DNA of 64,000 nucleotides from Longimicrobiales bacterium. GTDB taxonomy: Bacteria; Gemmatimonadota; Gemmatimonadetes; Longimicrobiales; Gaopeijiaceae. Made by a program: the position numbers and the translations under genes. Positions 12,789 through 53,032 of this stretch are shown here, in pieces (position 1 is the first letter of the stretch; each line of letters begins with the position of its first letter). The stretch covers positions 199,998 to 263,997 of the forward strand of contig CBDDEN010000007.1 in the NCBI GenBank assembly GCA_965226925.1. Reading direction: 5' to 3'. The notes under the pieces are model-generated. The model saw only the letters and a list, made by a program, of their open reading frames with translations. It did no database searches and was not told the DNA's origin.

Positions 12789-13286
12789 CTAGCCGCTATC
12801 CCGGGCCGAGCTCTTGAGAATTTCGTCGAAGAGGAAGAGATCCGTGAGAAGCGCCCGGAAGTGGATCGACGCGTTCAGGTTGTCGATGAGTTGCGAGCTG
12901 ATGGCGGACTGAGCCATCACGAGCCGGACTGCGGATCGTGTATCCCCCGCGTCCCGCTCGATCACCTTGCCCGCGTCCCGGTACGCGTCGGCCGGCTCCA
13001 GCCCGTCCACGACGCCACCCATGTCTCGGATGAGAGCGGCGAGGGCCTCGTCGGTCCGCGTCAGGTATTCGCGCAACTCTCCACCCGAAGTGCTGCCACC
13101 ATCGCCGGTCAGGCCTTGAGCCGCATAAGCGAGGAAGAACTCGTAGCTCTCTTCGATGGTGTCGATGTGCCTTCTGAGATCGTCGACCGTCACTTCAGGA
13201 AGACGCTCCTGAATCGAACGTAGCACCGGCGCCGCCCGCGTCGGCTTCGGCCGCTCCGGCCGATACCAACTCGGGCTCGTCCGCAC
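12789..13286 (-). CDS. Hypothetical protein, last gene of the molybdoenzyme/cytochrome b operon; start uncertain
   Basis: 165-aa ORF directly downstream of the cytochrome b gene, overlapping it if the longest start is used. I recognise no motifs. Confidence 0.4.
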   Translation of the reverse strand: MRTSPSWYRPERPKPTRAAPVLRSIQERLPEVTVDDLRRHIDTIEESYEFFLAYAAQGLTGDGGSTSGGELREYLTRTDEALAALIRDMGGVVDGLEPADAYRDAGKVIERDAGDTRSAVRLVMAQSAISSQLIDNLNASIHFRALLTDLFLFDEILKSSARDSG

Positions 13287-14088
13287 CCTCGACGACCCAT
13301 CGCTTCGGATCGTGGTTCCCGAGGTACTCGCTCCTGGGGATCCACCCGTAGATCATCGATTTGGTGATCCACCACTTGTCGGGGCGTATGGCGAAGTAGA
13401 TGTGGGTGATGGTCAGCGTGATCAACCCTACTCCGGACAGTCCGTGCAGCACGTAGACGACGCCCCAGGAACTGTCGGAGAGCATGTAGGGATTGGCGGT
13501 CCAGAATGGCGTCTCCAACCGCAGCATCATGAGCAAGCCGGTGGCGATGGCCACCAGCCCCGTCACGGCGGCACCATGATGGAAGAGGATGTGGTCGATG
13601 GGGTATTTGCCGGCCTTGGGAGCCCCTTCTCCATCCTTTCCCATGATGTTCCTCAGCTCCGCCACTCCGGCCTTGATGTCGGCCTTGTCAATCCACATCA
13701 CCCAGAAATCCTGCCAGAACGTCGCGCGAATGACGTGATACACGATCAGCGCGCTCAGAATCACACCCGCCACCCAGTGGATGGTTACCCAGGCGAACTG
13801 TAGACCCAACACCGGGAAGAACGCCGTGACGAGGAGCACGAGCATCGCCACGGCCATGAGCCAGTGGAAGACCCGCTCCGACCTGGCATGACGAAGAATG
13901 CGGCTGGGGAGGCCTGAACTCGGATCATCGGTCGAAGCAGTTTCGGCCGGCGCCAAGAAACGCGCCCACACCGCATGCAACACCACGAAGCCCGCCCCCG
14001 CGATAATGGCGGCCCACATCAGATCCCAGGACACCCCGATCAAGACTTCCTGATTCCACGGATTGATCGCCCGCCGCCAGAGCTCCAT
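13195..14088 (-). CDS. Membrane b-type cytochrome (FdnI / Ni-Fe-hydrogenase cytochrome b family)
   Basis: The pattern RHARSERVFHWLMAVAMLVLLVTAF, additional His-containing helices (IHWVAG, LFHHGAA, VLHGLSG) and multiple TM helices. Confidence 0.8.
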   Translation of the reverse strand: MELWRRAINPWNQEVLIGVSWDLMWAAIIAGAGFVVLHAVWARFLAPAETASTDDPSSGLPSRILRHARSERVFHWLMAVAMLVLLVTAFFPVLGLQFAWVTIHWVAGVILSALIVYHVIRATFWQDFWVMWIDKADIKAGVAELRNIMGKDGEGAPKAGKYPIDHILFHHGAAVTGLVAIATGLLMMLRLETPFWTANPYMLSDSSWGVVYVLHGLSGVGLITLTITHIYFAIRPDKWWITKSMIYGWIPRSEYLGNHDPKRWVVEGADEPELVSAGAAEADAGGAGATFDSGASS

Positions 14089-14091
14089 TCC

Positions 14092-15093
14092 CTAAGCCTC
14101 CGCTCCGCGCACGGCCCTACGGACCAGGTTGCGCATCATGGGGACCTTGAAGTCGTTGTGCCTGAGCGGCTTGGCCTTCTGGACAGCCAACAGTCCGGCC
14201 TGAGCTCCCAGGGCGTCCGACGGTATTTGTCCCTGAATCAGCGACTCGGCGGAAGTCAGTCGCACCGGGTAAGGGGCGACCCCGTTCACGGCCAGACGCG
14301 CCTCCGCGATGACGTCGCCGTTCATGCGCATGGCCGAGGCCACCGTCATGAGGGCGAAGTCCCAAGCCTTGCGATCCTCGACCTTCTCGTAGTAGAAGCG
14401 GGCCCCGGCCCAACGCGCGGGCAGTCGGATCGAGGTCAGCAGCTCCCCGGGCTTCAGGACCGTCATGCGCTCGATGTCGACACTGGGCCGCATGAAGAAG
14501 TTCTCCGCCTTGACCACGCGCTCTCCGCGAGGGCCTCGGATGACGAACTGGGCATCGAGGGCGATGAGCGCGGAAGCCGTGTCGGAAGGGTTCACGGCGA
14601 CGCAACGACTCGAGCCCAGAATGCAGTGCTCCCGGTTCATCGCCGTGGGAGCGGCCGCGTAACAAGTGTTGCCTCCGGCCCGGTAACAGGGCCAGCCTCC
14701 CCGGTAGTACCAGCAGCGCGTGTCCTGCGACAGGTTGCCGCCCAAGGTACCTCGATTTCGGATCTGCGGTGTGGCCACTCCGGACGCGGCGTCGGTGAGG
14801 ACGTTGTAATTCGATATAAGCTCCGGATTGTTCGCCACTTCCGTGATCGTGGTCAGAGCCCCGATCACCACGCCGTCGCCCGTGGACTGAACTCCGCGGA
14901 GCTCGTTCAGATTGACCAGGTCGACCACCGCCGCCGGTCGCTTGATACGGTCCTTGAACCAGTCGAAGCTGTCCAAGCCGCCCGACAACGCCCATCCATC
15001 CTCACCGTACCGATCCAACAGGTCGATGGCATCCTCGACGCGCGCCGGCTGGAAGAGCTCGAACGCCGGGATCATGTCTCTGATGACCGCCAT
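14092..15093 (-). CDS. FAD-binding subunit of a xanthine dehydrogenase/aldehyde oxidase-family enzyme (CoxM/PaoB-like)
   Basis: The segments FELFQPARVEDAIDLL..ALSGGLDSFDWFKDR, GTLGGNL and CYRAGGNTC are typical of FAD_binding_5 plus the CO dehydrogenase flavoprotein C-terminal domain. Confidence 0.9.
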   Translation of the reverse strand: MAVIRDMIPAFELFQPARVEDAIDLLDRYGEDGWALSGGLDSFDWFKDRIKRPAAVVDLVNLNELRGVQSTGDGVVIGALTTITEVANNPELISNYNVLTDAASGVATPQIRNRGTLGGNLSQDTRCWYYRGGWPCYRAGGNTCYAAAPTAMNREHCILGSSRCVAVNPSDTASALIALDAQFVIRGPRGERVVKAENFFMRPSVDIERMTVLKPGELLTSIRLPARWAGARFYYEKVEDRKAWDFALMTVASAMRMNGDVIAEARLAVNGVAPYPVRLTSAESLIQGQIPSDALGAQAGLLAVQKAKPLRHNDFKVPMMRNLVRRAVRGAEA

Positions 15094-17161
15094 GATTCGT
15101 TTCTCCCTTTAGACGTGGAGGTCGAGGGGGCCGTACGCCGGCGGGCGTCCCTCGATCTCGGCAAGAAGGACGTCCGCCGTCAGTGGCGTACGACACAAGC
15201 ACTGACCGCCCAACGCATCGGCGATAGCCGACGTCAGGGCGGCGGAGCCGGCCCCCACACACGGCTCACCGATTCCCTTGGCACCCACCGGGGTCTGGGG
15301 ATCGGGAATCTCTACGGCCGCCCACTCCATATCGATGGGCACGTCTAGGATCCCGGGTGGGCGGGCCGTATAGAGGCGTTTGGCGAAGGACACTCCCCAG
15401 ACGGGGTCGAAGACCCACTTCTGGCTCATCGCGATACCCATTCCCTGGATGGAGCCACCCAGTATCTGACCACCGAGGCTGCGTGGGTGGAGCACGGTGC
15501 CGCAGTCGGCAACTGCAGTATAGTTCACGATGTCCACCCGGCCGGTCTCGACGTCCAACTCTACCTCCGCGAAGCCGACGACCCAGGATTGGACTCCGCC
15601 CTCGCGTGGGTAGTTGTCCTTCGCGGCGGCCACCAGCCCCTGGCCGGCCAATCCCGCTGCGGCGGCCTTGGTCATGTCGTTGAGGTCGTCGTCGACCTCC
15701 TCACCGCCGTAACGACCGCCCAACTCCATGGCGCGGGTCGCAGCTCGAGCGAAACTCATCCCCGTGGACGGGCTCGAGCGGCGGAAGACGCGGCCGTCGG
15801 CCGTATCGTAATCCCCCGCGGATCCTCCCAGGTCGCGCGCCGCGATCTCCTGCAGGAGGCGCTCCGCTGCCGTCCCCACGGCGTGGTTCGCCCTCGTGTG
15901 GGCGAAGGTGGTTTGGCTCCCGGCCTGAACGGAACTCCAAGGCAGGTTGCGGCTCGTGTCCCCCCAGACGACCTCTACGTCGTCCCAGCCCACGCCCAGA
16001 ACGTCGGCCGCCGCCCTCGCCGTGTCGGCGACGGAGTGCGTTCCCAGATTCCCGATTCCCTGATGGATGTACACCTTACCGTCGGGGCGAATCACGAGCA
16101 GCCCGTCGAAACCCGAGCTGCCTGCGGTATAGGGGCTGACTCCGACCCCGATGCCGGTGACCTTGGAGCCGTTCCGCTGCCCGCTCCTGGCCATCCTCTC
16201 CTCCCAGCCGAACATCTCCGCGCCCTTGTCGATGGCTTCCTTGACGAAGACGCTGGTGAGGGTGCTCCCGCGGGGCCCGAACGCCACGTCGGCACCCGGC
16301 GCGTTGATGCGCCTGAGCTCCAAACGATCGATCCCGAGCTCACGGGCGGCTTTGTCCATAAGCGGCTCGAGCATCCCGATGATCTGGGCGCCGCCGGGGC
16401 CTCGTTGGGCCGCCTTCGGCGGCGTGTTGGTGTAGACCGAGACGCCGCGGTGCCGCTGGTTGAGCGGAGTATACGTCAGCGACGCGGTAGAGCCCGCGGA
16501 CATGTTGTCGCCGGAGCCGCCGTACGGGCCCCCGTCGCCGAGGATGTACATGTCAATGGCCGTGATTCGGCCGTCGACCCGGAACCCGATCTTCACCTGG
16601 GCCTGGAAGCCCGGACGCGCCCGGCCGATGTAGGTCTCCTCGTACCGGTTGATCCGCATCATGACCGGGCGGTTGATCTTCTGGGAGAAGACCGCGGGAA
16701 ATCAGCATGTGCACGCTGCCCGTGATCTTGCTGCCGAAGCCGCCTCCGCAGTAGTCGCCCACCAGCACCACGTCTTCCATATCCATGGAGAGCATGCAGG
16801 CGACGGCCGCCCTCGTCCTCGCGAGACTCTGCGTGGACGTGTGCATGTACAGCTTACCGTTCTGCCAGTACGCCAACGTCGTGCGAGGCTCCAGCGGATG
16901 GTGCGTGAGCGACTGGTGGGTCATCGTCTCGTCAATGATCAAGTCGGCTTCGGCGAAGCCGGCCTCGACGTCCCCGACGCTCCACTCCGCGCCTGCCTCC
17001 CCAAGGGGAAGGGTGCCCTCAGGTACGGCGGCGAAGTCCTCTTCCGTCCACTTGATGGTGACGAGATCCCGTCCGACCCTGGTATTCCCGTCGAGACGGG
17101 CGTTGGGGCCATTCGGCCTCAGGCTGTCCAAGGGATTCAACACGAACGGCAAGGGCTCTAA

Positions 17162-18360
17162 GGAGGGTCTGAACAACCCCCATCTTGGGAGGAACGCGAT
17201 CGGTTGCGGTTCGAAGATCCGGTTCGAAGACCTATCGGAGCGATGAAGTGCTGGCTGGCGCGCCGGAGAAACGGTCCGAACCGTCAGGAAGTCGCTTCGA
17301 TGTGTCCGGCTCCCGCCCTCGGGCGGTCCATGGGCCGCGCGTTATCCGGTCGCGTAGCGGCCAGCGATGAGCAGATTCGAGAACCCGAGCAGCAACGCGA
17401 TGCGCTGCGTGTTCTTCGCCAGTCCCCGGTAGCGCACCTTACCGTACCCGAAGCGCCGCTTCACATACAAGAACGGATGCTCCACCTTCGCCCGCACCGA
17501 TGCCTTGCGCTTCTCGGCCGCCGCCTCGGCGCCGTCCCGATCGAGCAGGCGACGCTTGCCCGGCTTCATCGCCACCTGCCAGGCGACGTCGCAACCCCTG
17601 TTCTCCGGGCGCTTGTCCACACCCTGGTAGCCCGCGTCGCCCCATGCCTCCGTCTCGTCACCATGCAGCAGCACGCACGCCTGCGTCACGTCCGCCGCGT
17701 TGGCGGCCGTCGTCGCCAAGCTGTGCGCCAGACCCGATTCGGCGTCCACCCCGATATGCGCCTTCATCCCGAAGTACCACTGGTTTCCCTTCTTCGTCTG
17801 GTGCATCTCCGGATCCCGTTCTCCCCTGCGGTTCTTCGTCGACGACGGCGCGTCAATGATGCTCGCATCCACGATCGTCCCCGTCTTCAACCGATGCCCG
17901 AGAGACGCCAGATGCGTATTGATCTCCTCGAACAACCCCATCCCCAAGCCCTGCGTCTCCAGCAGGTGACGGAAGTTCAGGATCGTCGTCTCGTCCGGCA
18001 AAGAACCGCTCAGGCGCAGACCCGCAAAGCGGCGCACTGACTCCACCTCGTAGAGCAGATCCTCCATGCCCGGATCGCTCACGTTGTAGAACAGCTGCAC
18101 ACAATGAACCCGCAGCATCACCCCAAGCGGATAGGGGCGGCGGCCACGGCCAGCCTTCGGATAGAACGGCTCGATCCGATCCTCCAGCTGTTGCCAGGGA
18201 ATCAGCCCCTCCATCTTCTCCAGGAAAATCTCCCGGCGCGTCCGCCGCTTCTTCGAATCGTACTCCAGCTCCGCGAAAGTCATCTGAAGCTCCATGGCCC
18301 GCTCACAACTCCCCGGTCGTTTCATACCATGAAACTACACCCGTCTTGTTCAGAGTTTCC
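17162..18360 (-). mobile_element. IS5-family insertion sequence, 1199 bp, flanked by a 4-bp target duplication
   Basis: CTAA is directly repeated at 17158-17161 and 18361-18364 (TTAG on the gene strand, fitting the IS5 YTAR preference). The terminal inverted repeats are GGAGGGTCTGAACAA and GGAAACTCTGAACAA (12/15 identical). There is a single DDE transposase ORF. Confidence 0.9.
17342..18325 (-). CDS. IS5-family DDE transposase
   Basis: 327 aa. The sequence includes ..RRPYPLGVMLRVHCVQLFYN.SD..ED.L.. , IVDASIIDAPSSTKN, KKGNQWYFGMKAHIGVD, GDAGYQG and VRAKVEHPF..VKR.FGY.KVRYRGLAKN. Confidence 0.9.
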   Translation of the reverse strand: MKRPGSCERAMELQMTFAELEYDSKKRRTRREIFLEKMEGLIPWQQLEDRIEPFYPKAGRGRRPYPLGVMLRVHCVQLFYNVSDPGMEDLLYEVESVRRFAGLRLSGSLPDETTILNFRHLLETQGLGMGLFEEINTHLASLGHRLKTGTIVDASIIDAPSSTKNRRGERDPEMHQTKKGNQWYFGMKAHIGVDAESGLAHSLATTAANAADVTQACVLLHGDETEAWGDAGYQGVDKRPENRGCDVAWQVAMKPGKRRLLDRDGAEAAAEKRKASVRAKVEHPFLYVKRRFGYGKVRYRGLAKNTQRIALLLGFSNLLIAGRYATG

Positions 18361-20023: not shown

Positions 20024-23000
20024 ATGGCACAGGGGCCCACGCCCAGGTACTTTCGGAGCGTGAATCAGCCGCAACTGCCCCAACGTCCTAGTCTCACCAA
20101 GGTGCAGGCGCTCGACCTTCTCGGGTCCCACTTCGGACTCGTCGGAGACGTAGATTCGCTCCCTAGCTGGCGCGATCAGAACTTCCGGGTGGTCACCGAC
20201 GGGGGCGACCGGTTCGTCCTCAAGATCGCGAACGCCGACGAACCGATGGCCCTGCTGGATCTCCAGACCGACGCCCTGGCGTTCCTGGCCGACCGGGATA
20301 TCGGCATCGATCTCCCGAAGACGGTACCGACCATGGCGGGAGATCGGGGTGTCGCGGCTCCCGGTCGGAACGGCGCGACGCACTGGGTGCGACTCCTCAC
20401 GTATGTGCACGGAGAGGTCCTCGGAGGGATCCGCCCCCGCACGCCGGCTCTGCTGGAGTCCTTCGGTGAGGCGATCGGTCGACTCGACACCGAGCTCGCG
20501 ACCTTCGACCACCAGGCGGCCGTACGCCCGGACTTCCTATGGGATCTGACCCGCGCCCGCGAAGTCATGGCCGAAGGCCTGTCCTCAGTGGTCGGGAAGG
20601 AGCGGCGGGCCCGGGTCGAGGCGGTGGCCCGTGAGTTCGAGTCGGTTGTGGCACCGCTCCTGCCCAAAGTGCCGAGGAGCGTCATCCACAACGACGCCAA
20701 CGACTACAACGTGCTGGTCGGCCCTCCAACACCGGGGGGGCGCAGGGTCGTCGGGCTCCTCGATTTCGGAGACGTGTTGAAGGGCCCGACGGTCTGTGAC
20801 CTCGCCATCGCCGCCGCCTACGCCCTGATGGGTGCGCCCGACCCGATCTCCGCGATGATCTCAGTGGTGCGGAGGTACGATCGCCACCGTCCGCTCACGG
20901 AGGAGGAGATCGAGATTCTCTTTCCCCTCGTCCAGGCCCGGCTGGGTGTGAGCGTCAGCATCTCGGCGAAGGGAAGCGAGGGGGACTCGGAGGACGGGTA
21001 CTTCACCATCAGCGAGGCCCCGGCCTGGGAGGCGCTTACTTCTCTGGCGTCCGTCCATCCACGAGTGGCCCGCAACCTCTTCAGGGACGCGTGCGGATTG
21101 GAGCCGTGCCCTCGGCACCAGGCAGTGACCGGGTGGATCGCGTCTCACCGAGAGCACCTGGGCCCCGTGGTCAGGGAGGCTTTGGACGATGCGCTCGTCT
21201 TCGATCTCAGCGCGAGCAGTTCCGAGATCGAGGACCTGGACCGGGTCCTCGATCCCGCGACGTTCAACGTGCAACTCGTGCGGCGTCTGGAAGATCAGGG
21301 CTCCAAGGTGGGCGTCGGTCGATACGGCGAGCCCCGTGTTTGGCACGCGTCGGACAGCTACGGCCAGGCTGCGGGAGAGTTCCCCGAGAGGCGGACGGTC
21401 CATACAGCCATCGACGTCTTCCTTCCCGCTGGAAGCGACGTCCTGGCACCCCTTTCCGGGTGCGTCCACAGTCTGAAGAACAATTCGGAGAGGCTGGACT
21501 ACGGACCCACGATCATCCTCGAACACGCGCCGGAGGACGGGCCCACGTTCTGGACCCTGTACGGGCATTTGGCCGCAGAGTCCTTGGAGGGCCTGGAGGT
21601 GGGGCTTTCAGTAGCCGGGGGGCAGGAGATCGCACGCCTCGGAGACTTCCCGGAGAACGGGGACTGGCCGCCGCACCTTCACTTCCAGTTGATCACCGAC
21701 CTGTTGGATTCGGAAGGGAATTTCCCGGGAGTGGCTCTGCCCAGCCAGCAGAACGTGTGGCTGAGCATGTCCCCCGACCCCGGCGTCATGCTCGCTCTGC
21801 CCGAGGGCTCGGCATACGCCCCGCCCCAGCCGGTCGAGGCGGTCAGAGATCTCCGCCGAGCACATGTGTCGGCGTCCCTGAGCCTCTCCTACGCAGAACC
21901 GCTCCACATCGTCCGAGGGTGGAAGCAACACCTCATCGATGCGCAGGGACAGGCCTACCTCGACTGTGTCAACAACGTCTGTCACGTGGGCCATTGTCAC
22001 CCCCGCGTAGTCGAGGCCGCCGAGAGGCAGATGGGCGTCCTCAACACGAACACCCGGTACCTCCACGAGTTGATCGGGCTCTACTGCGCGCGCCTGACGG
22101 CCACCCTGCCCGACCCGCTCTCCGTCTGCTTCCTGGTGAACTCCGGAAGCGAGGCCAACGAACTAGCGCTTCGACTCGCCCGCGCGCACACCAAACGGGA
22201 CGACTTCATCGTCGTGGGGGGAGCCTACCATGGAAATACAGGAGCGACGGTGGCGGTAAGCCCCTACAAGTTCGAGGGGCCGGGCGGGGAAGGCGCCGCC
22301 CCCCACATCCACTCGGTCGCTATGCCCGACGACTACCGCGGACGCTTCCGTCGGCCCGATCCCGACCGCGGCAAACGGTACGCCGAACTGTTGGTGGAAG
22401 CGGCGGCAGAAGCGCACCGCAGGTCCTTCGGCCCGGCGGCGTTCATCTGCGAGAGCCTGTTGAGCTGTGGAGGGCAGATCGAGTTGCCTCCGGGCTACCT
22501 GGAGGTGGCCTACTCCCTGGTGCGTGAGGACGGCGGAGTCTGCATCTGTGACGAGGTGCAGGTGGGTTTCGGCCGTGTGGGGAGCCACTTCTGGGGCTTC
22601 GAGACACAGGGCGTCGTTCCCGACATAGTGACCATGGGTAAACCGATCGGGAACGGGCATCCTCTGGGCGCCGTCGTCACCACGCCCGAGATCGCCAAGA
22701 GCTTCGCGAACGGCATGGAGTACTTCAACACGTTTGGAGGTAACCCCGTATCGTGCGCCGTCGGTCTGGCGGTACTCGACGTGATCGAGCAGGAAGGACT
22801 CCAGGAGCGTGCCCACCGCGTAGGCAGCCACCTGAGCCACGGCCTTCGCACGCTGATGGAACGGCATCCGGCCGTGGGAGACGTGCGCGGCCTCGGCCTA
22901 TTACTGGGGATCGAAATCGTATCCGACAGAGCCGGCCCGACGCCGCACGCCGGTGTCGCCACCTACGTCGTGGAGAGAATGAAGGATCACGGAGTCCTCC

Positions 23001-23140
23001 TGAGTACGGACGGACCCGATCACAACGTGATCAAGATCAAGCCACCGCTGGTGTTCGCCGAAGGCGATGCGGACCGAGTTGTCGAGGTCCTGGACCGGGT
23101 ACTATCGGAGGACTACGTAAGGGCAACCTGCGGCGAGTGA
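20024..23140 (+). CDS. Tri-domain fusion: APH-type phosphotransferase + M23 peptidase-like domain + class III PLP aminotransferase-fold domain
   Basis: Kinase motifs [20 protein letters not shown] and LLDFGD. M23 motifs [20 protein letters not shown] and PPHLHFQL. Aminotransferase III motifs [25 protein letters not shown] and [15 protein letters not shown]. It is a single uninterrupted 1038-aa ORF. Confidence 0.85.
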
Positions 23141-34210: not shown

Positions 34211-34930
34211 ATGCTCTTTCTGACCCTTCAGGGCTCCGGCCTGTCCGAGAGCCTCTCGCAGAGTCCCCTCCTCGCCCTGGTCACCCTGTTCGGAGCTGGG
34301 GTCCTGACCAGCCTGACACCGTGTATCTACCCGATGATCCCGATCACGGCGTCCGTTCTGGCGGGCACGACGGACCGGGAGGCACCGAGGTCGAGGGTGA
34401 TCGGTCTTACGCTCACCTACGTCCTTGGCCTGGCGCTTCTGTACGCCACCGTGGGACTCATCGCCGGCATGACGGGCACGTTGTTCGGCACGGTGAGCGC
34501 AAGCCCCTGGGCGCGTTTCGCGATCGCGAACGTGCTCCTGATCTTCGGGCTGGCGATGCTCGACGTGTTTCCCCTGTCGGCGCCGAAGCGACTTCTGGCG
34601 TGGGCGGGCGGCCTGGGAGGCGGCTCGTACCCGGCCGTGTTCGCCCTGGGAGCGACATCGGGGATCGTGGCGGCACCGTGCGGTGCGCCCGCTTTCGCCG
34701 TGGTCCTCACGTGGGTGGCGGCGACGCAGGCGGGACCCATGGGGTTCTTGTACCTGTTCGTTTTCTCGCTGGGAATGACGGCTTTGCTGGTAGGGGTAGG
34801 CCTGTTCTCGGGGTTCGGAGCGGCGTTGCCCGTTTCGGGCTCGTGGATGGTCGGGATCAAAAGAGCCGCCGCGGTGATTATGCTGGGGATGGCCGAGTAC
34901 TACTTCATACAAGTGGGTATGGTACTGTGA
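34211..34930 (+). CDS. ccdA: Cytochrome c biogenesis / thiol-disulfide electron transporter CcdA (DsbD transmembrane-domain family)
   Basis: The segments LTPCIYPMIP and APCGAPAF carry the two conserved Cys, across six TM helices. Confidence 0.85.
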   Translation: MLFLTLQGSGLSESLSQSPLLALVTLFGAGVLTSLTPCIYPMIPITASVLAGTTDREAPRSRVIGLTLTYVLGLALLYATVGLIAGMTGTLFGTVSASPWARFAIANVLLIFGLAMLDVFPLSAPKRLLAWAGGLGGGSYPAVFALGATSGIVAAPCGAPAFAVVLTWVAATQAGPMGFLYLFVFSLGMTALLVGVGLFSGFGAALPVSGSWMVGIKRAAAVIMLGMAEYYFIQVGMVL

Positions 34931-35490
34931 AGACGATCGATCCCCGTAGACCGTGGCGTCCCTCGACGGGTGCGCTGACCACGCTGGGCGTCACCCTGGC
35001 TCTCACGATTCTCGTGATTCCCCCTCGGAGTGCGTCCGCCCAGAAGCGCGGCGAGGTGGGTATCGCGCTGGGCGAGCGTCCGGAGCTGGTCACGATCGAG
35101 GACCTCGATGGGAACCCGCTCGAGCTCTCGGACTACGTCGGGGAGAGGCCGCTCTTGATCGAGTTCTATGCCCGGTGGTGTGAGAACTGCGAGGCGCTCC
35201 TGCCACAGATGATGGACGTCTACGCGCGCTACCGGGACCGTATCGAGTTCCTGGCCATCAGCGTGGCCGTGTCCCAGTCTCCTCGATCGGTGAAGCGAGC
35301 GCTCGCGGACCATCCGATCGACTACGCCACGGTCTGGGACGAGGGCGGGAGGGCCGTACGGGCCTTCCTCGCCCCCGCCACCTCGTACATCGTTGTCCTA
35401 GACAGGCAGGGTGTGGTGACCTACACGGGCATCGGCCCGGAGCAGAACATCGAGGCGGCGGTCATGACGGCACTGAACGGGTCGGACTAG
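34927..35490 (+). CDS. TlpA/ResA-like periplasmic thiol-disulfide oxidoreductase (thioredoxin fold)
   Basis: The GTG start overlaps the ccdA stop (GTGA). There is a signal anchor, then PLLIEFYARWCENCEALLP with the WCxxC motif. Confidence 0.8.
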   Translation: MKTIDPRRPWRPSTGALTTLGVTLALTILVIPPRSASAQKRGEVGIALGERPELVTIEDLDGNPLELSDYVGERPLLIEFYARWCENCEALLPQMMDVYARYRDRIEFLAISVAVSQSPRSVKRALADHPIDYATVWDEGGRAVRAFLAPATSYIVVLDRQGVVTYTGIGPEQNIEAAVMTALNGSD

Positions 35491-36080
35491 ATCCCGGGGT
35501 CCTCGTCCAGTGAAGGAGCCACACGCTCTACCTCGGCGCCCAGTTCCTCATAGGCGGTCGGGTCGATCTCGCGGAACCGTTCGGTCACCCACGCGATCTT
35601 GCCGTTCGGCCCGACCACGATGACCGATCGTGATGCGATGTTCCCGCTCGTGCGGAGCCCCAGACCATAGGCCTCGGCGACGTCATGACCCTCGTCCTGT
35701 GCGAACAAAAAGGGGAAATCGGCGTCGGCGGCCCATGAGGCGAGCTCTTCAGCCGAGTCGTCGCTGATGCCGATGACGGTTACGCCTCGGCCACCCCGAA
35801 AAACGCTTGCGTACTGATCACGGTACGCTTCCATTTGAATCGTTCAGCCACGGGTTCGCGCCCTGAAAAAGAACGCCAATACCACCACCTCTCCCCTCAA
35901 ATCCGATAGACGGACCGGGTCCTGGAGGACTCCGTAGCGGGTCGCGCCGGGAAGGGAGAAATCCGGCGCCATCTCACCCACGGCGATGAGGGTGGATTTT
36001 TCGTTTTGAGCTTCAGCGGGTTGGGCCAACACGAACCCCAAGGCAAGGGCGAAGACGAAGGCAGTATAGCGCAGTCGCAT
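35487..36080 (-). CDS. Secreted peroxiredoxin (AhpC/TSA-BCP type) with an in-frame TGA at the peroxidatic Cys position; candidate selenoprotein (197 aa, U79)
   Basis: ORFs 35844..36080 and 35487..35834 are in the same phase. Read-through gives ..DLRGEVVVLAFFFRARTRG[TGA]TIQMEAYRDQYASVF..GNIASRSVIVVGPNGKIAWV.., which carries the T-x-x-(C/U) motif and the conserved Arg. The signal peptide is MRLRYTAFVFALALGFVLAQPAEA. Confidence 0.6.
35809..35828 (-). promoter_or_regulatory. Candidate bacterial SECIS hairpin downstream of the in-frame UGA
   Basis: The mRNA reads UGA-ACGAUUCAAAUGGAA-GCGUAC-CGUGAUCA-GUACGC. This is a perfect 6-bp stem starting 15 nt after the UGA, with GU in the loop. Confidence 0.4.
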
Positions 36081-36145
36081 CGGGAGCCCTCCTTCTCGTC
36101 GGTGCGAGGAACCTATGGTAGGCCATCAGTATAGGTTGACGGACC

Positions 36146-40077: not shown

Positions 40078-40572
40078 TCAATTCTCGATGCGGATACTGC
40101 CCAACACCTCTCTCTGCTCGTCGAGCGCGACCGGTCCCGGGGGGAGGCCGTTCATCTGGAAGATGTACGAGAGGACCGCGACGTACTGGCCCGGCTCCAG
40201 GGAGCCCGGCTGATCCTCGGGCATGAGCGCGCTCACCAGGTCGAACAGGTCGCCGACCGTGGCACCGGCCCAAGCCTGGATGAACGTATCACCGAATTGA
40301 GACGGTTCATGACAGGCGGCGCACGCCGTCTCGAACGTCTCTTCTCCACTCTTGGCCTGCGCCTCGGAAAAGACGCCATCCTGCGTCGACTTGAGTGAGC
40401 TCGACTGGGCCTCCGCATCGTTGAGACCGAGCGTGCAGACCAAGACGATCGCGATCGACGCCGCCGTCCCCAGGCGACGGACCACGGCCCCCGGCACAGT
40501 GGTTCCAAGGTCGGACGGCGAATACACGTGGGTCGTTTCCTGAAGTGAGAGATGAAGCCAGTAAGGTGCCAA
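40078..40572 (-). CDS. Membrane-anchored c-type cytochrome
   Basis: Haem motif CAACHEP and a distal Met context (LMPEDQPG). The real start is probably the GTG at 40485, ahead of the signal anchor. Confidence 0.75.
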   Translation of the reverse strand: MAPYWLHLSLQETTHVYSPSDLGTTVPGAVVRRLGTAASIAIVLVCTLGLNDAEAQSSSLKSTQDGVFSEAQAKSGEETFETACAACHEPSQFGDTFIQAWAGATVGDLFDLVSALMPEDQPGSLEPGQYVAVLSYIFQMNGLPPGPVALDEQREVLGSIRIEN

Positions 40573-40956
40573 CCGCGGTGGCGTGGAGCAAGGTGATCGT
40601 TCCCTCTACTCCCTCCTCGAATCGCCCGTTCCACCGAGGGGCCGAAACGTCCCGGCCCAAAGCAAACGCCTCCGGGGTCGGCACGCCGAACCTCACGACC
40701 GGCCGCATGCGTCCGAACCCTAGAAGGCTGTTGAAGAAGTACAGTGGGTCGCGCACAGGGTGCCCAACAGACGAGTTGATATGAGCATACGTGTACCGGT
40801 AGGAGCGCCGATCCTCATCGCCATGGCGGAAGCGCTGATGGAGTAACACGCGCAACCTAGGTTCAATCGGGATAGGGGAGGACCGGCGATCCCGGTCCTT
40901 CCCCTCCCACACCACCAGGCATGCGGGTCCGCACCTGGCGGTTCGGTGAGTTGAGG

Positions 40957-42367
40957 TCAGTACGGCGTGAGCCGGGGCACACCCAGCTCGTCGAAGTACG
41001 CCCCTGGCAAGGCCGTGTGCAGGGCGTGGTGCGCGGCCACGTGCCACCAGCTTCGCGCGAACCGAGCAGCTCGCCAGGCGAGGTTCTCGCTCACACCGCG
41101 AGCCCTCAACTCCCGGTACGCTGTCCTTCCCCGTTTCCACTGGCGTAATTGCAACGTACGCAGCCGGCGGTGGATCCATTGGTCCAGGTCTCGGAAAACC
41201 CCCGGTGTATCCGCTAAGCCGAAGTCCTTGAACTTCGTCAGGGCCTTGCCTTCCATCCGCTAAGCCGAAGTATGCCTTCCACCCCAGCACGTAGCGCCGT
41301 AGCTCTTCCGCCACCTGTTGCAGGCTCCGCCCGCCACTCCGGCTTGTAATCTGCCGGACTCGCTCCTTGAACTTCGTCAGGGCCTTCTTGCTGACCCGGC
41401 GCTTCACGACCTTCCCTGCCGCTACCCAGAAGCTGTAGCCCAGGAACTGTCGATCCCACACTCGCGCCACCGCGCTCTTTTCCTCGTTGACCTGAAGCCG
41501 AAGTTTCCCGTACAAGTGCCTCAGCGCCTGCATCACACGTTGTCCTGCCCGCCTCGACCGCACGTATACATTGCAGTCATCGGCGTACCGGACAAACGCG
41601 TGTCCGCGTAGCTCCAACTCCTTGTCCACTTCGTCCAGGAGCACGTTCGCCAGCAACGGCGACAACGGTCCGCCCTGAGGCGTCCCCATGTGCCGCTCCA
41701 TCACCACCCCGTTCGCCATGACTCCGGCTTCCAGGTAGCGACGGAGGATCCGCAGCATCGCCTTATCCTCGATCCGCTTTGCCAGCCGCCCCATCAGCAC
41801 GTCGTGGTTCACCCGGTCGAAAAACTTCTCCAGGTCCACATCCACCACCCATCGTCTCCCTTCCTGGATGTATTGCTGCGCTTCGCGCACCGCATCGTGT
41901 GCTCGGCGCCCAGGCCGGAAGCCGTGGCTGTGCCGACTGAACGTCGGGTCGAACCTCGGTTGCAGCACCTGCAGGATGGCTTGTTGGATGAACCGGTCCA
42001 GCACGGTCGGAATCCCCAACTCCCGGACCCCTCCCCCACTCTTCGGTATCTCCTGCCTTCGTACCGGCTTCGGTTGGTAGGTCCCCGCCAGCAACCGCTG
42101 TCGGATCTCCCCCCAGTGCCTGCGCAAGTACTCTGGCAGCTCCTCCACGCTCATCCCGTCGATGCCCGGACTGCCCTTATTCTGCCGCACGCGTTTCAAC
42201 GCTCCTACGAGGTTGGCACGCCCGACCACCTCCTCCATCAGGAGATGCTCGCTTCCTGAGCGCTCGTCTCCATGGGCCACCGTTCCGGCTTCGCCACTCC
42301 CCTCTACCTTCGGGGCTTCACCCCTATCCTCCAGCGGGAGCTCCAGTTGCCTGGACTCCTGGCGCAT
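40957..42367 (-). pseudogene. Group II intron reverse transcriptase/maturase (no endonuclease domain), frameshifted by a 46-nt insertion
   Basis: RT motifs GIDGMS, RRQEIPKSGGGVRELGIPTVLDRFIQQA, HGFRPGRRAHDA, VDVDLEKFFD, GTPQGGPLSPLLANV and RYADDCNVYV. The maturase X domain continues in ORF 40957..41256 (..YFGLADTPGVFRDLDQWIHRRLR..). The phases differ by 1, which equals 46 mod 3. Confidence 0.8.
41209..41271. repeat. Direct repeat bounding a 46-nt insertion in the intron ORF
   Basis: ATCCGCTAAGCCGAAGT occurs at 41209-41225 and at 41255-41271. The 29 nt between the copies contain CCTTGAACTTCGTCAGGGCCTT, which is a copy of sequence found about 140 nt away (around 41364-41386). Confidence 0.75.
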
Positions 42368-42818
42368 GGCCTTCTCGAGATCCACGGTCGTCACACTCTC
42401 CTCTCCGTTCGGCCCTTCGTCCGACAAAGCTGGGTCCAAGCGCATCATGCACTTCGTCGGCCTACTATGGCCTCTGCTGACTTCTCGCTCCGCCGGCAGG
42501 CCCAACAGCGCAATGCCGGCGTCGCCCTTTCAGGCGTCAGGCGAGACCTCCCCGGGTAAGAACGATGACCTTCCCCGCACAATCGCCGGATCTACGCCGC
42601 TTCCCCTTGGTCGCAGGAGCTTCGCGGTCAGTGGTCCGCTCGCCCCGGTCCGCAGCGCCTCGTATCCGGTTCCTGTTCGTCGACTCACGGGTTCGTTGCA
42701 CGCTTCGTTCAGCGTACGCCTCACGACGAACGCCTTGCGCTTCCCTTCGGTCCCTGCGACCAGGTTCCGGGAGGACTTTCACCTCCAAGTCATCGCCCAT
42801 GCCGGGCCCACCACCAAC

Positions 42819-42876: not shown

Positions 42877-43987
42877 TAGTGGACTGTAACATATAAATGA
42901 TTAGTGGTAGATTGAATGGTATGAAAACTGATCCGATCAGATTGACCGAGCGGGAACGTGCCGAGCTCGGGCGGCGTGCGAAGAGTCGGGCAGGGCGTGC
43001 CGATGATGCTCGGATCGCTCGGGTGCTGCTCTTGCTGGCTGACGGGGTGACGTACCGAGAGATCGCGAGTCGGGTCGATTGCTCGGAGCCGTTCATCAGC
43101 AAGTGGAAGAAGCGGTTCCTGGCCGAGCGGCTGGCCGGACTCTACGTCCGGCACGAGGGACGGCCCGTGACGGTGCTGACACCCAAGGTGGAGGCGCGGA
43201 TCCTGAACTGGACGCGCACGAAGCCGACCGACGGGTCGACGCATTGGAGCACGCGGCGCCTGGCCAAGAAGCTCGGCGTCCACCACATGATGGTGGCTCG
43301 GACCTGGAAGAAGCACGGGGTTCAGCCTCATCGGATGGAGCGCTACATGGCGTCCAACGACCCCGAGTTCGAGGAGAAGGCCGCCGATGTGATCGGGCTC
43401 TATCTCAATCCCCCGCAACATGCCGTCGTGCTTTGCGTGGACGAGAAGACGGCTATTCAAGCGCTGGACCGCAAAGATCCGGTTCTGCCCCTGTCGCCCG
43501 GCAGGGCCGAGCGGCACGGGTTCGAGTACGTCCGCCACGGCACCCTCTCGCTCTACGCCGCGCTCGACACTCAGACCGGCGAGGTTGTGGGCAAGACCAC
43601 GGCCCGCCATACGAGCCAGGAGTTCGTGGCTTTCCTGACCGATATCGTGGTCAGGCAGCCCGAGGATCGGGAAATCCACATCATCCTCGACAACCTCTCG
43701 GCTCACAAGACGCAGCGCGTTCAAGCCTTCCTCGACGCTCACCCCAACGTCACGTTGCACTTTACCCCTACCTACTCCTCTTGGCTCAACCAAGTCGAGC
43801 TGTGGTTCTCCAAGATCGAGCGCGATCTCATCCACCGCGGCGTCTTCACCTCCGTGAACGACCTCGCCCGACGCATCATGACCTACATCCGTCGCTACAA
43901 CGACGATCCAAGAACCGTGAAGTGGCAGTATGATGACCCCTCGCGACGCATCCACGTCGCTTAACGTTCACGTGTTACAGTCCACTA
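42877..43987 (+). mobile_element. IS630-family insertion sequence (1107 bp core) with TA duplication in a CTAG target
   Basis: A perfect 17-bp inverted repeat CCTAGTGGACTGTAACA (42875-42891) pairs with TGTTACAGTCCACTAGG (43973-43989). TA flanks both ends. The reconstructed empty site is CCTAGG. Confidence 0.9.
42897..43964 (+). CDS. IS630-family (Tc1/mariner-like DDE) transposase
   Basis: 355 aa. It has an N-terminal HTH (VTYREIASRV..SEPFISKWKKRF), then DEKTAIQAL, LDNLSAHK and YSSWLNQVELWFS. Confidence 0.9.
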   Translation: MISGRLNGMKTDPIRLTERERAELGRRAKSRAGRADDARIARVLLLLADGVTYREIASRVDCSEPFISKWKKRFLAERLAGLYVRHEGRPVTVLTPKVEARILNWTRTKPTDGSTHWSTRRLAKKLGVHHMMVARTWKKHGVQPHRMERYMASNDPEFEEKAADVIGLYLNPPQHAVVLCVDEKTAIQALDRKDPVLPLSPGRAERHGFEYVRHGTLSLYAALDTQTGEVVGKTTARHTSQEFVAFLTDIVVRQPEDREIHIILDNLSAHKTQRVQAFLDAHPNVTLHFTPTYSSWLNQVELWFSKIERDLIHRGVFTSVNDLARRIMTYIRRYNDDPRTVKWQYDDPSRRIHVA

Positions 43988-51960: not shown

Positions 51961-52122
51961 TTACTCGGTTTTCGGCTCTTTCGGCTCGCTTTCCTGAGCC
52001 ACGCGTTTCAACTCCTTCACGACGCGTTTGCTGAACACCTTCTGCATGATCTCGTCTCCCGTGAGTTTGCTCACGTCCTTGGGGAGCCGGTCCTTCTCTC
52101 TGCGCTTGGTGGAATCAACCAT
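51961..52122 (-). CDS. Possible small charged protein (53 aa) inside the transposon, divergent from the transposase
   Basis: The sequence is MVDSTKRREKDRLPKDVSKLTGDEIMQKVFSKRVVKELKRVAQESEPKEPKTE. I recognise no family, and it may be spurious. Confidence 0.2.
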   Translation of the reverse strand: MVDSTKRREKDRLPKDVSKLTGDEIMQKVFSKRVVKELKRVAQESEPKEPKTE

Positions 52123-53032
52123 GTCGAGCACCGCCAATATCAATCTGATGTCGTTGATGGATCGCTTCGGAACCGAAGAGACCTGCCGGGAATACCTCGA
52201 AAAGCTGCGCTGGCCGTCTGGTGTCGCCTGCCCGCGTTGCGGTGACATGTCCGTATCCGAGATCACCACTCGGGACCAGTTCGATTGCAACGGATGCCGC
52301 TACCGCTTCTCTGTGACCTCGGGGACGATCTTCGACAACACCAAGCTTCCTCTGCGGAAGTGGTTCGTGGCCATGTACCTGATGATCGAGTCTAAGAAGG
52401 GGATCAGCGCGAACCAGATGAAGCGCACCCTCGGAGTCTCCTACAAGACCGCTTGGCACCTCTGTCACCGCATCCGTGAGGCCATGACTACCGACCGCTT
52501 CGAGGGACCGACGCTGTTCGGGATCATCGAAGTGGACGAGACGTTTGTCGGTGGTCGCCAGCGAGGCAAGGGCAGAGGACCCTACTCGACGACCAACAAG
52601 TCCATCGTCGTGGGTGCCGTGCAGCGTGACGGGCGCGTCCGCCTGGAGCGCATCCCGAACACGAAACGGGCCACCTTGGACGACTTCATCAAGCGCACCG
52701 TCACCGATGAAGCCCTCGCCATCTACACCGACGAGTTTCCGGCCTACCGTGGCCTCGGGGACCGTATGGGCATCGAGCATGACACCGTGCAGCACAACCT
52801 CGACGAATGGGTCGTGGGCGATGTCCACACGAACAGCGTCGAAGGCATGTGGAGCCTGTTCAAGCGTTCCGTCATGGGTGCCTTCCACAAGATCAGCGTG
52901 AAGCATATGGACCGTTACCTCGAAGAGCTTGAATGGCGCTTCAACAACAGGGATAACCCGCTCATTTTCCGGGATCTTCTTCTTCGGATTCTTGACGGGA
53001 AGGCTCTTCGCTATCGAAGCTTGACGGCATAG
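52121..53032 (+). CDS. IS1595-family (ISXO2-like) transposase
   Basis: Zinc-ribbon N-terminus F.TEETCREYLEKLRWPSGVACPRCG..C..C, then the DDE region IIEVDETFVGG, IYTDEFPAYRGL and TNSVEGMWSLFKR. The start could instead be the ATG at 52148. Confidence 0.85.
   Translation: MSSTANINLMSLMDRFGTEETCREYLEKLRWPSGVACPRCGDMSVSEITTRDQFDCNGCRYRFSVTSGTIFDNTKLPLRKWFVAMYLMIESKKGISANQMKRTLGVSYKTAWHLCHRIREAMTTDRFEGPTLFGIIEVDETFVGGRQRGKGRGPYSTTNKSIVVGAVQRDGRVRLERIPNTKRATLDDFIKRTVTDEALAIYTDEFPAYRGLGDRMGIEHDTVQHNLDEWVVGDVHTNSVEGMWSLFKRSVMGAFHKISVKHMDRYLEELEWRFNNRDNPLIFRDLLLRILDGKALRYRSLTA

Follow-up and report, generated by a model that had tools for sequence, protein, structure and literature searches.

A BCP/PrxQ-like peroxiredoxin gene of Gemmatimonadota in which an in-frame TGA at the peroxidatic position almost certainly encodes selenocysteine

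A stretch of 64,000 nucleotides from a Longimicrobiales bacterium of the phylum Gemmatimonadota (assembly GCA_965226925.1, contig CBDDEN010000007.1, positions 199,998 to 263,997), hereafter the window, carries on its minus strand two small adjacent open reading frames (ORFs) that were found to be the two halves of a single peroxiredoxin gene, separated by one in-frame TGA at the position of the peroxidatic cysteine. Comparison of this gene with 164 related loci having TGA at the same codon, and with homologues having Cys there, indicates that the TGA almost certainly encodes selenocysteine (Sec). A hairpin located shortly downstream behaves in these comparisons as a bacterial selenocysteine insertion sequence (SECIS). 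Positions are given throughout in window coordinates.

The two minus-strand ORFs, 35844..36080 (78 residues) and 35487..35834 (115 residues), were confirmed by ORF listing and lie in one phase (36080 − 35834 = 246 = 82 × 3), the sole break between them being the TGA at 35846..35844, which is followed by the codons ACG ATT CAA. Translation of the minus-strand frame from 36140 to 35487 gives ..MRLRYTAFVFALALGFVLAQPAEAQNEK...VVVLAFFFRARTRG-stop-TIQMEAYRDQYASVF...DEDPGI-stop, and from the ATG at 36080 the gene reads MRLRYTAFVFALALGFVLAQPAEAQNEK...GEVVVLAFFFRARTRG-TGA-TIQMEAYRDQYASVF...DEDPGI-TAG, ending at 35487. The original prediction, made from the letters of the window, had placed two ORFs of the same phase on either side of a TGA and three sense codons; its coordinates and translation agree in full with those obtained here, and the two small ORFs are confirmed to be one intact gene, not two. 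The N-terminus of the product shows the n, h and c regions of a signal peptide, with a positively charged MRLR, a hydrophobic core and an AxA site (AEA) followed by Q, and the homologues have equivalent N-termini. This points to a precursor carrying a signal peptide for the Sec translocon, which would hence be exported.

The joined product of 197 residues, with Cys written for the stop, matched Pfam family AhpC-TSA (PF00578; positions 1–123/124, expect value (E) 2.5e-26), the match running across the TGA. Among 5.8 billion proteins searched, the full-length homologues had 190–200 residues and at most 62% identity. They read ..FFPRARTRGCTIQM.. (..ARTRGCTIQM..), with a Cys exactly at the TGA column, and Cys was present in this column in 104 full-length homologues. 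The best matches among solved structures were the BCP-type peroxiredoxins 2ywn (E 2e-12) and 2cx3 (E 4e-10), whose peroxidatic Cys (..FTQVCTKEM..) aligned to the TGA. The active-site motif of the window protein is T76-R-G-TGA79, so that the Thr three residues before the peroxidatic position is present, and Arg151 (..IASRSVIVV..), which is invariant in the alignments, pairs with the catalytic Arg of 2ywn and 2cx3. Both active-site assignments made beforehand, the TGA in place of the peroxidatic Cys and the conserved Arg in ..ASRSVIVV.., were borne out by alignment of the joined product to its Cys homologues, in which U and C share one column.

An AlphaFold (AF2) model was analyzed for the nearest Cys homologue, P0003, standing in for the window protein (predicted local distance difference test, pLDDT, 88.2; predicted template modeling score, pTM, 0.82). 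It was closest to BCP structures, with template modeling (TM) scores of 0.82–0.84 to 9a4d_B (E. coli BCP model), Sulfolobus Bcp4 and Bcp1, and M. tuberculosis BcpB. The NCBIfam BCP equivalog model NF006960 gave 61.3 bits, below its cut-off of 140, and on this score the window protein is a relative, no equivalog. Its sequence suggests a thiol/selenol-type peroxidase of a BCP/PrxQ-like subfamily, which would detoxify peroxides.

The TGA is not peculiar to the window. In a tblastn survey of species-representative genomes, TGA was found at this codon in 80 of the 80 best loci, which were colinear with the window gene across the TGA and were labelled Gemmatimonadota (Longimicrobiales, Candidatus Palauibacter and Gemmatimonadales) save for three sponge metagenome-assembled genomes (MAGs) labelled Gammaproteobacteria. 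A metagenome scan seeded with Cys forms gave TGA in 78 of its 80 best loci and Cys in two, and later look-ups brought the totals to 164 TGA loci and 10 TGC loci. Protein identities among the 164 ranged from 55 to 99%, and beyond the TGA the frame remained open for 108–146 codons (median 116) in all 151 complete TGA genes. The closest relatives in protein databases (75–99% identity) were all fragments of 111–128 residues starting at the same Met after ..TIQ, the pattern left by a stop codon common to a whole clade. The 115-residue product of the window was identical on six independently assembled ENA contigs, which excludes a sequencing error, and the gene is carried by the complete genome OZ250165.1, by OZ242324.1 and NZ_OZ253465.1, and by ENA contigs of 1.4–1.7 Mb; the ENA contigs ERZ25766727 ctg362079 and ERZ28763718 ctg124826 encode the window protein without any change.

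Some of these loci deserve separate mention. The three MAG contigs labelled Gammaproteobacteria (L021, L022 and L023; VXMG01000077.1, VXNP01000038.1 and JAPPHB010000015.1) share the peptide motif around the UGA with the Longimicrobiales chromosome L028, from which their DNA differs at synonymous sites only, and are one residue off L024 and L025; they are probably misbinned or mislabelled Gemmatimonadota. In another locus (L061, 5862–6434) the Sec form reads ..FFFRVRGGG-U-TIQM.., with Gly in place of the conserved Thr of TxxU. Either a mistake in the assembly or a variant without the catalytic Thr could account for this.

Downstream of the TGA, the minus strand contains GCGTAC (35828..35823), the loop CGTGATCA (35822..35815) and GTACGC (35814..35809), so that the hairpin starts 15 nt and its loop 21 nt past the UGA. 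A perfect 6-bp stem closing an 8-nt loop with GU, 15 nt after the UGA, had been predicted, and its exact coordinates were reproduced. The hairpin was compared with the consensus of bacterial SECIS elements (bSECISearch model, Fig. 2A of PMC13188914), which has a loop of 3–9 nt, a stem of 4–16 bp and a distance of 16–37 nt from UGA to loop, and further a G in the first two loop positions and a minimum free energy of −7.5 kcal/mol or lower (PMC13188914). Its geometry falls within these published constraints, with an 8-nt loop in which G comes second and U third (CGU...), a 6-bp stem and a spacing of 21 nt. Taken by itself the hairpin was rejected as evidence: the single-sequence fold of 71 nt did not differ significantly from shuffled sequences (z = −0.36), and of all the TGA triplets of the window, 3.8% are followed by a perfect 6-bp hairpin satisfying the SECIS spacing and loop rules. 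The single-sequence signal is weak, and support for the hairpin comes from comparison across loci.

Across loci the picture was a different one. The exact 20-mer GCGUAC-CGUGAUCA-GUACGC was present in 161 of the 164 TGA loci, the three exceptions being changes of loop bases with the stem kept, and its distance to the UGA was fixed at 15 nt in every locus. Codons +6 to +11 (GCG TAC CGT GAT CAG TAC) were the same in 151–152 of 152 unique TGA forms, with a synonymous entropy of about 0, compared with 1–2 bits of codon entropy for comparably conserved residues elsewhere in the gene in the same 152 forms; in the remainder of the gene, CGT and GAT are minor codons. Nine of the 10 Cys loci have lost the 20-mer, their stems being weakened to −0.5 to −4.9 kcal/mol, and the association of the 20-mer with TGA was significant on unique sequences (Fisher p = 7e-8). 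The sole Cys locus keeping the 20-mer, L168, differs from a Sec form by only 0.7%, a sign that TGA changed to TGC very recently. RNAalifold returned as consensus exactly this 6-bp stem and 8-nt loop (−8.5 kcal/mol), and the mean fold energy over 40-nt segments was −9.6 kcal/mol. Combined, these comparisons argue that the hairpin behaves as a bacterial SECIS and that the UGA is recoded with the hairpin as signal, and they show the gene family, the UGA and the putative SECIS to be conserved across Gemmatimonadota rather than confined to one genome.

Sequence constraint also extends to the 5' side of the UGA. The Gly codon preceding it is GGC in 97% of Sec forms, and GGC, GGT, GGA or GGG in Cys forms. 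One codon further upstream, Arg is encoded by CGT in 83% of Sec forms and the Pro variants always by CCT. Both codons vary freely in Cys forms. On the 3' side, the first codon is ACG or ACA in 97% of the sequences (L001–L160). The constraint on the two upstream codons suggests that context upstream of the UGA contributes to recoding.

The second trait that distinguishes Sec from Cys forms is the residue at the Pro position of the PxxxTxxC motif. This Pro has been called absolutely conserved in peroxiredoxins (PMC3322552), and the motif of Sec-peroxiredoxins has been given as PxxxTxxU (PMC13188914). In the window protein the canonical Pro is absent, Phe72 being aligned with the Pro of 2ywn. Among TGA forms the position was occupied by Phe in 143 and by Tyr in 19, never by Pro, and among Cys forms of the same family by Pro in 102 of 104. 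Of 254 unique sequences, 252 combine either U with Phe or Tyr, or C with Pro. Parsimony on a rough neighbor-joining tree required Sec and Cys to interchange about 13 times and Pro and Phe-Tyr about 11 times, exact counts being unreliable on a tree this crude, and for seven Cys lineages the nearest neighbor was a Sec form. Repeated coupled switching of Sec/Cys and Phe-Tyr/Pro is nevertheless clear: about 160 Sec forms all have Phe or Tyr, and the two traits would have switched together some 7–13 times independently. Loss of the Pro may, speculatively, reflect different active-site needs of a selenol. A wider proposal, to which we give an even chance, is that Sec and the active-site Pro are mutually exclusive in this family, that the selenol needs or tolerates a different active site and that Sec decoding is near-universal in Gemmatimonadota.

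The window protein has no other Cys, and no Cys was found in the mature part of 146 of the 151 Sec forms. Lacking a resolving Cys, it is a 1-Sec enzyme. A C-terminal resolving Cys was considered and rejected, as a ..PDC tail occurs in only five of the 151 Sec forms and is absent from the window protein. A longer acidic C-terminal tail ending in ..PDC was observed in the close homologues P0004, P0006, P0009, P0012 and P0026, where the lone Cys at the C-terminus could serve for resolution.

The gene is convergent with two genes of thiol redox metabolism, encoding a TlpA/ResA-like thioredoxin and a CcdA-type transporter (Table 1). The stop codons of the tlpA-like and peroxiredoxin genes overlap in CTAG, and the NCBIfam ResA/TlpA-like matches of the 34927..35490 product fall below their cut-offs. 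Flanks of 2.5 kb or more on each side were available for 95 TGA loci, and in 81 of these (85%) both the tlpA-like gene and ccdA lie convergent downstream, so that the redox cluster of a peroxiredoxin convergent to ccdA-tlpA, noticed at first in the window, turned out to be a conserved arrangement. The two genes also adjoin Cys forms. In Caulobacter, a periplasmic peroxide pathway from ScsB through TlpA to PprX, a BCP/PrxQ peroxiredoxin, has been demonstrated (PMC3322552). From the conserved gene order, we infer a partnership of the peroxiredoxin with TlpA and CcdA.

Table 1. Positions of the peroxiredoxin gene, its landmarks and the adjoining redox genes in the window
Feature	Position	Strand	Basis
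ccdA, DsbD-type transmembrane electron transporter, 239 residues, two conserved Cys	34211..34930	+	Pfam DsbD_TM, DsbD_2; NCBIfam DsbD subfamily, 128 bits
tlpA/resA-like membrane-anchored thioredoxin, 187 residues, WCENC motif, N-terminal anchor	34927..35490	+	Pfam Thioredoxin, Redoxin, AhpC-TSA, Thioredoxin_8, matched by an identical called gene
Complete BCP/PrxQ-type peroxiredoxin gene, 197-residue precursor, one in-frame TGA (codon 79), final stop TAG	35487..36080	-	Translation, Pfam, tblastn
Codon of Arg151, catalytic Arg of peroxiredoxins	35628..35630	-	Invariant in alignments; matches Arg of 2ywn (..AKRAV..)
Putative SECIS hairpin, 6-bp stem GCGUAC/GUACGC, 8-nt loop CGUGAUCA	35809..35828	-	Cross-locus comparison, RNAalifold, bacterial SECIS rules
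In-frame TGA, predicted selenocysteine codon U79, peroxidatic position	35844..35846	-	Cys column of homologues and solved BCP structures
CGT GGC, two codons 5' of the UGA	35847..35852	-	Synonymously constrained in Sec forms
Codon of Thr76, conserved Thr of TxxC/TxxU	35853..35855	-	Translation and alignments
Codon TTC of Phe72, canonical Pro position of PxxxTxxC	35865..35867	-	Aligned to Pro of 2ywn (..FYPAAFTQVC..)
Predicted signal peptide (Sec translocon type) MRLRYTAFVFALALGFVLAQPAEA, cleavage after AEA	36009..36080	-	Read from translation
Shine-Dalgarno-like AAGGAGG, 7 nt upstream of ATG	36088..36094	-	Read from sequence; function putative

Based on these features, the following course of events is proposed. 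The UGA at codon 79 would be read as Sec during translation, the hairpin in the mRNA acting as a bacterial SECIS that, by analogy with established bacterial Sec insertion, would recruit SelB with Sec-tRNASec. The precursor would then be exported by the Sec translocon by means of its N-terminal signal peptide. In the cell envelope, the selenolate would attack H2O2 or organic hydroperoxides and become a selenenic acid. Because the peroxiredoxin has no resolving Cys, direct resolution by the TlpA-like protein is proposed: the nucleophilic Cys of this membrane-anchored thioredoxin (WCENC) would resolve the selenenic acid, and TlpA would in turn be re-reduced by CcdA with electrons from cytoplasmic thioredoxin.

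Several observations weigh against this proposal. The search for Sec machinery covered the 64-kb window and about 2 Mb of sequence flanking related loci. No match to selA, selB or selD was obtained by tblastn with E. coli SelA, SelB and SelD (NC_000913.3) in the window and 160 related loci; Pfam found no SelA, SelB or SelD domains on 30 ORFs of the window; ARAGORN found no tRNA-Sec in the window or in 60 related loci; and Rfam returned a group II intron and no tRNA-Sec for the window. A six-frame scan of related DNA (about 2 Mb) for Sec/Cys pairs, in which TGA was translated as Cys and the products were compared with conventional ORFs by blastp, likewise gave no second selenoprotein. The scan did recover the peroxiredoxin family (including L030 and L144), the rest being shadow-frame noise; a search for hairpins with similar loops after TGA gave 18 matches, none of them in a coding frame. 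As for the hairpin, its stem is invariant and thus shows no compensatory covariation, and the bare 20-mer folds at only −7.0 kcal/mol, short of the −7.5 threshold. The structural support consists of invariance at synonymous sites together with loss in Cys forms. The absence of the canonical Pro could be read by a sceptic as loss of peroxidase function, and the export, the peroxide substrates and the partnership with TlpA are themselves predictions.

Four other explanations of the interrupted gene were weighed. That a TGC-to-TGA nonsense mutation, or an error of sequencing or assembly, has left two dead fragments would agree with the two fragments given by gene callers and with TGA being one substitution away from TGC. 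It is refuted by the comparative data and retains a negligible probability: 164 loci, drawn from numerous species and samples, have the TGA at this codon, and at 55–99% identity they are not copies of one contaminant; the frame is intact and conserved at the protein level on both sides in 151 of 151 complete genes; and the sequence recurs identically in six independent assemblies. Two separate polypeptides could alternatively be made, a 78-residue exported peptide terminating at the UGA and a cytoplasmic 115-residue protein re-initiated at Met83, whose ATG lies four codons past the TGA and is taken as a start by gene callers. However, Met83 is equally conserved in the Cys forms, where it is internal (..GCTIQM..), and is not preceded by a Shine-Dalgarno sequence; the half with Thr and Sec would be parted from the catalytic Arg, with the halves in different compartments; and loss of the hairpin exactly upon change of TGA to TGC would not be expected. 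The chance that this is the case is very slim.

That no Sec machinery was found in the window, the related loci and their flanks speaks for read-through with a standard residue, whereby a near-cognate or suppressor tRNA would insert Cys, Trp or Arg without any Sec machinery and the hairpin would slow termination; hairpins that stimulate read-through of stop codons are a known phenomenon. Against it, the hairpin fits the geometry and loop rule of SelB-type bacterial SECIS elements, and recoding falls on the redox-active Cys column, the hallmark of Sec/Cys pairs. Trp or Arg at this site would kill catalysis, and for Cys the codon TGC is one mutation away, being used by sister lineages that then lose the hairpin. 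Read-through of this kind is held to be quite improbable. A similarly small chance is given to conservation of the 20-mer for a reason other than Sec, such as a protein-binding DNA palindrome or an element for mRNA stability or regulation, with recoding brought about by something else. The 20-mer is indeed a near-palindrome containing TGATCA, and no compensatory covariation proves RNA pairing, but over about 7–13 independent switches it goes with TGA and is lost with TGC, its position is fixed relative to the UGA in every locus, and the three natural variants alter the loop only and retain the stem. Global reassignment of TGA was also considered and rejected: nine of the 24 Pfam-supported genes of the window end in TGA, which is therefore otherwise an ordinary stop in this organism. 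In view of all this, decoding of the UGA as Sec followed by export and by recycling through TlpA and CcdA is considered, as a whole mechanism, highly probable, and the three readings that have an intact gene and a recoded UGA in common add up to near certainty.

The final stops of the 151 complete Sec-form genes were TAG in 89, TAA in 32 and TGA in only 30, compared with TGA in nine of the 24 supported genes of the window. This may mean that selenoprotein mRNAs tend not to carry another UGA.

Sec-peroxiredoxins (TxxU, PF00578) have been established by experiment as a selenoprotein family of prokaryotes (PMC13188914) and have been met repeatedly in marine metagenomes (PMC13188914, PMC2398784), in agreement with the original prediction that the class is already known. 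Within this class, the window protein represents a distinct new subfamily, marked by its BCP/PrxQ-like sequence, predicted export, 1-Sec nature, [F/Y]xxxTxxU motif, invariant SECIS and CcdA/TlpA neighbors, and no NCBIfam model covers it. It resembles PrxU of Eubacterium acidaminophilum (NF040737) in its PF00578 fold, in Sec at the peroxidatic position of TxxU and in a SECIS within the coding region after the UGA. Nevertheless, it belongs to a different family, scoring 41.9 bits against a cut-off of 270 and so not reaching equivalog level, and whereas PrxU is cytoplasmic, comes from an anaerobe and has PxxxTxxU (PMC13188914), the window protein is BCP/PrxQ-like, with a signal peptide, [F/Y]xxxTxxU and no other Cys. 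With BCP/PrxQ enzymes (E. coli BCP, Sulfolobus Bcp1 and Bcp4, M. tuberculosis BcpB, and the BCPs of Aeropyrum and S. tokodaii) it shares the aligned Thr, peroxidatic position and Arg. These enzymes, however, use Cys and keep the Pro, in place of which the window protein has Sec and Phe and scores below the equivalog cut-off (61 vs 140 bits); many BCPs moreover have a resolving Cys five residues past the peroxidatic one, and the window protein has none.

A functional parallel is the PprX/TlpA/ScsB system of Caulobacter crescentus (PMC3322552), with an exported peroxiredoxin of BCP/PrxQ type, a TlpA-type thioredoxin and a transporter of the DsbD family. PprX, by contrast, relies on Cys, having PxxxTxxC and also a resolving Cys, and its transporter is ScsB rather than a minimal CcdA (PMC3322552). 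The PprX partnership has been shown experimentally, whereas the one proposed here is suggested by conserved synteny, the likeness being one of description. Prx-like thiol:disulfide oxidoreductase selenoproteins (UxxC/UxxU) also belong to PF00578, and are predicted selenoproteins that are often exported, but they have a thioredoxin-type UxxC and are no peroxidases, unlike the window protein with its TxxU and catalytic Arg. The hairpin, like the bacterial SECIS consensus with its archetype in E. coli fdhF, is a stem-loop in the coding region after the UGA with G at loop position 2 and then U; it differs from E. coli SECIS elements in an unrelated sequence and no evident bulged U, and from the bacterial consensus in being unusually invariant phylum-wide and in the further constraint acting on the two codons 5' of the UGA. 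In the literature searched, a partial set, no description was found of selenoproteins or Sec machinery in Gemmatimonadota (including Longimicrobiales and Palauibacter).

Other features of the window were also recorded. A group II intron occupies 40307–42730 on the minus strand; its ORF (40307..42505) contains RVT_1 (reverse transcriptase) and GIIM (maturase) domains, and Rfam matches to intron domains D1–D4 at 42412–42730 scored 113 and 41 bits. An IS630-like DDE_3 transposase gene (42897..43964, plus strand) adjoins it. Contigs with an identical peroxiredoxin differ at the intron stretch, one having a set of genes resembling a cyclic oligonucleotide-based anti-phage signaling system (CBASS; CD-NTase_C, Cap15, TIR_2) and others different transposases, and the stretch looks like a variable island beside an MMPL gene. 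At 15109..16662 (minus strand) lies a large subunit of the xanthine dehydrogenase family (MoCoBD_1/2) that matches Pfam only from profile position 123, next to a DDE_Tnp_1 transposase gene (17342..18325, minus strand), and may have been truncated by insertion of a mobile element; the MoCoBD subunit is followed by genes for a FAD-binding subunit (14092..15093) and cytochrome b561 (13195..14088). An ORF of 1038 residues (20024–23140, plus strand) is an unusual three-way fusion of APH phosphotransferase, Peptidase_M23 and class-III aminotransferase. A transposase of the ISXO2/IS1595 family was found at 52028–53032 (plus strand), so that, counting the intron and transposase elements listed here, the window has at least four mobile-element genes.

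The original prediction also anticipated mis-annotation of the gene as two fragments, and in public records of NCBI, ENA and JGI it is indeed split in two in well over a hundred Gemmatimonadota genomes and contigs. Two entries take other forms. In L174 (JGI Ga0633609_0330342), the gene call P0067 has Trp for the TGA, so that its product is a full-length 'peroxiredoxin' whose active site contains W. In L175 (ENA NODE_137323, coverage 1.6x), P0051 has TTA (Leu) at the TGA codon with the hairpin intact, which is probably a read error. Entries of both kinds mask the selenoprotein in protein databases. A simple rule, namely TGA followed 15 nt later by GCGTACCGTGATCAGTACGC, would allow the annotation to be corrected, and the invariant SECIS offers a lineage-specific probe for more selenoprotein genes.

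The coupled switches of Sec/Cys and Phe-Tyr/Pro constitute a natural experiment on the use of selenocysteine and on the role of the canonical Pro and would, if the present reading is true, provide a natural series of matched Sec and Cys enzyme pairs. The very short list of peroxide-reduction pathways of the cell envelope would also gain one that depends on selenium, with a candidate dedicated electron supply in CcdA-TlpA. Gemmatimonadota include aerobic members. Sec decoding is implied to be widespread in a major phylum of soils, marine habitats and sponges, one which PMC8547001 counts among the ten most abundant in soil. If this is true, an exported 1-Sec peroxidase together with its invariant SECIS would make Sec decoding, and with it the supply of selenium, a trait found almost throughout Gemmatimonadota.

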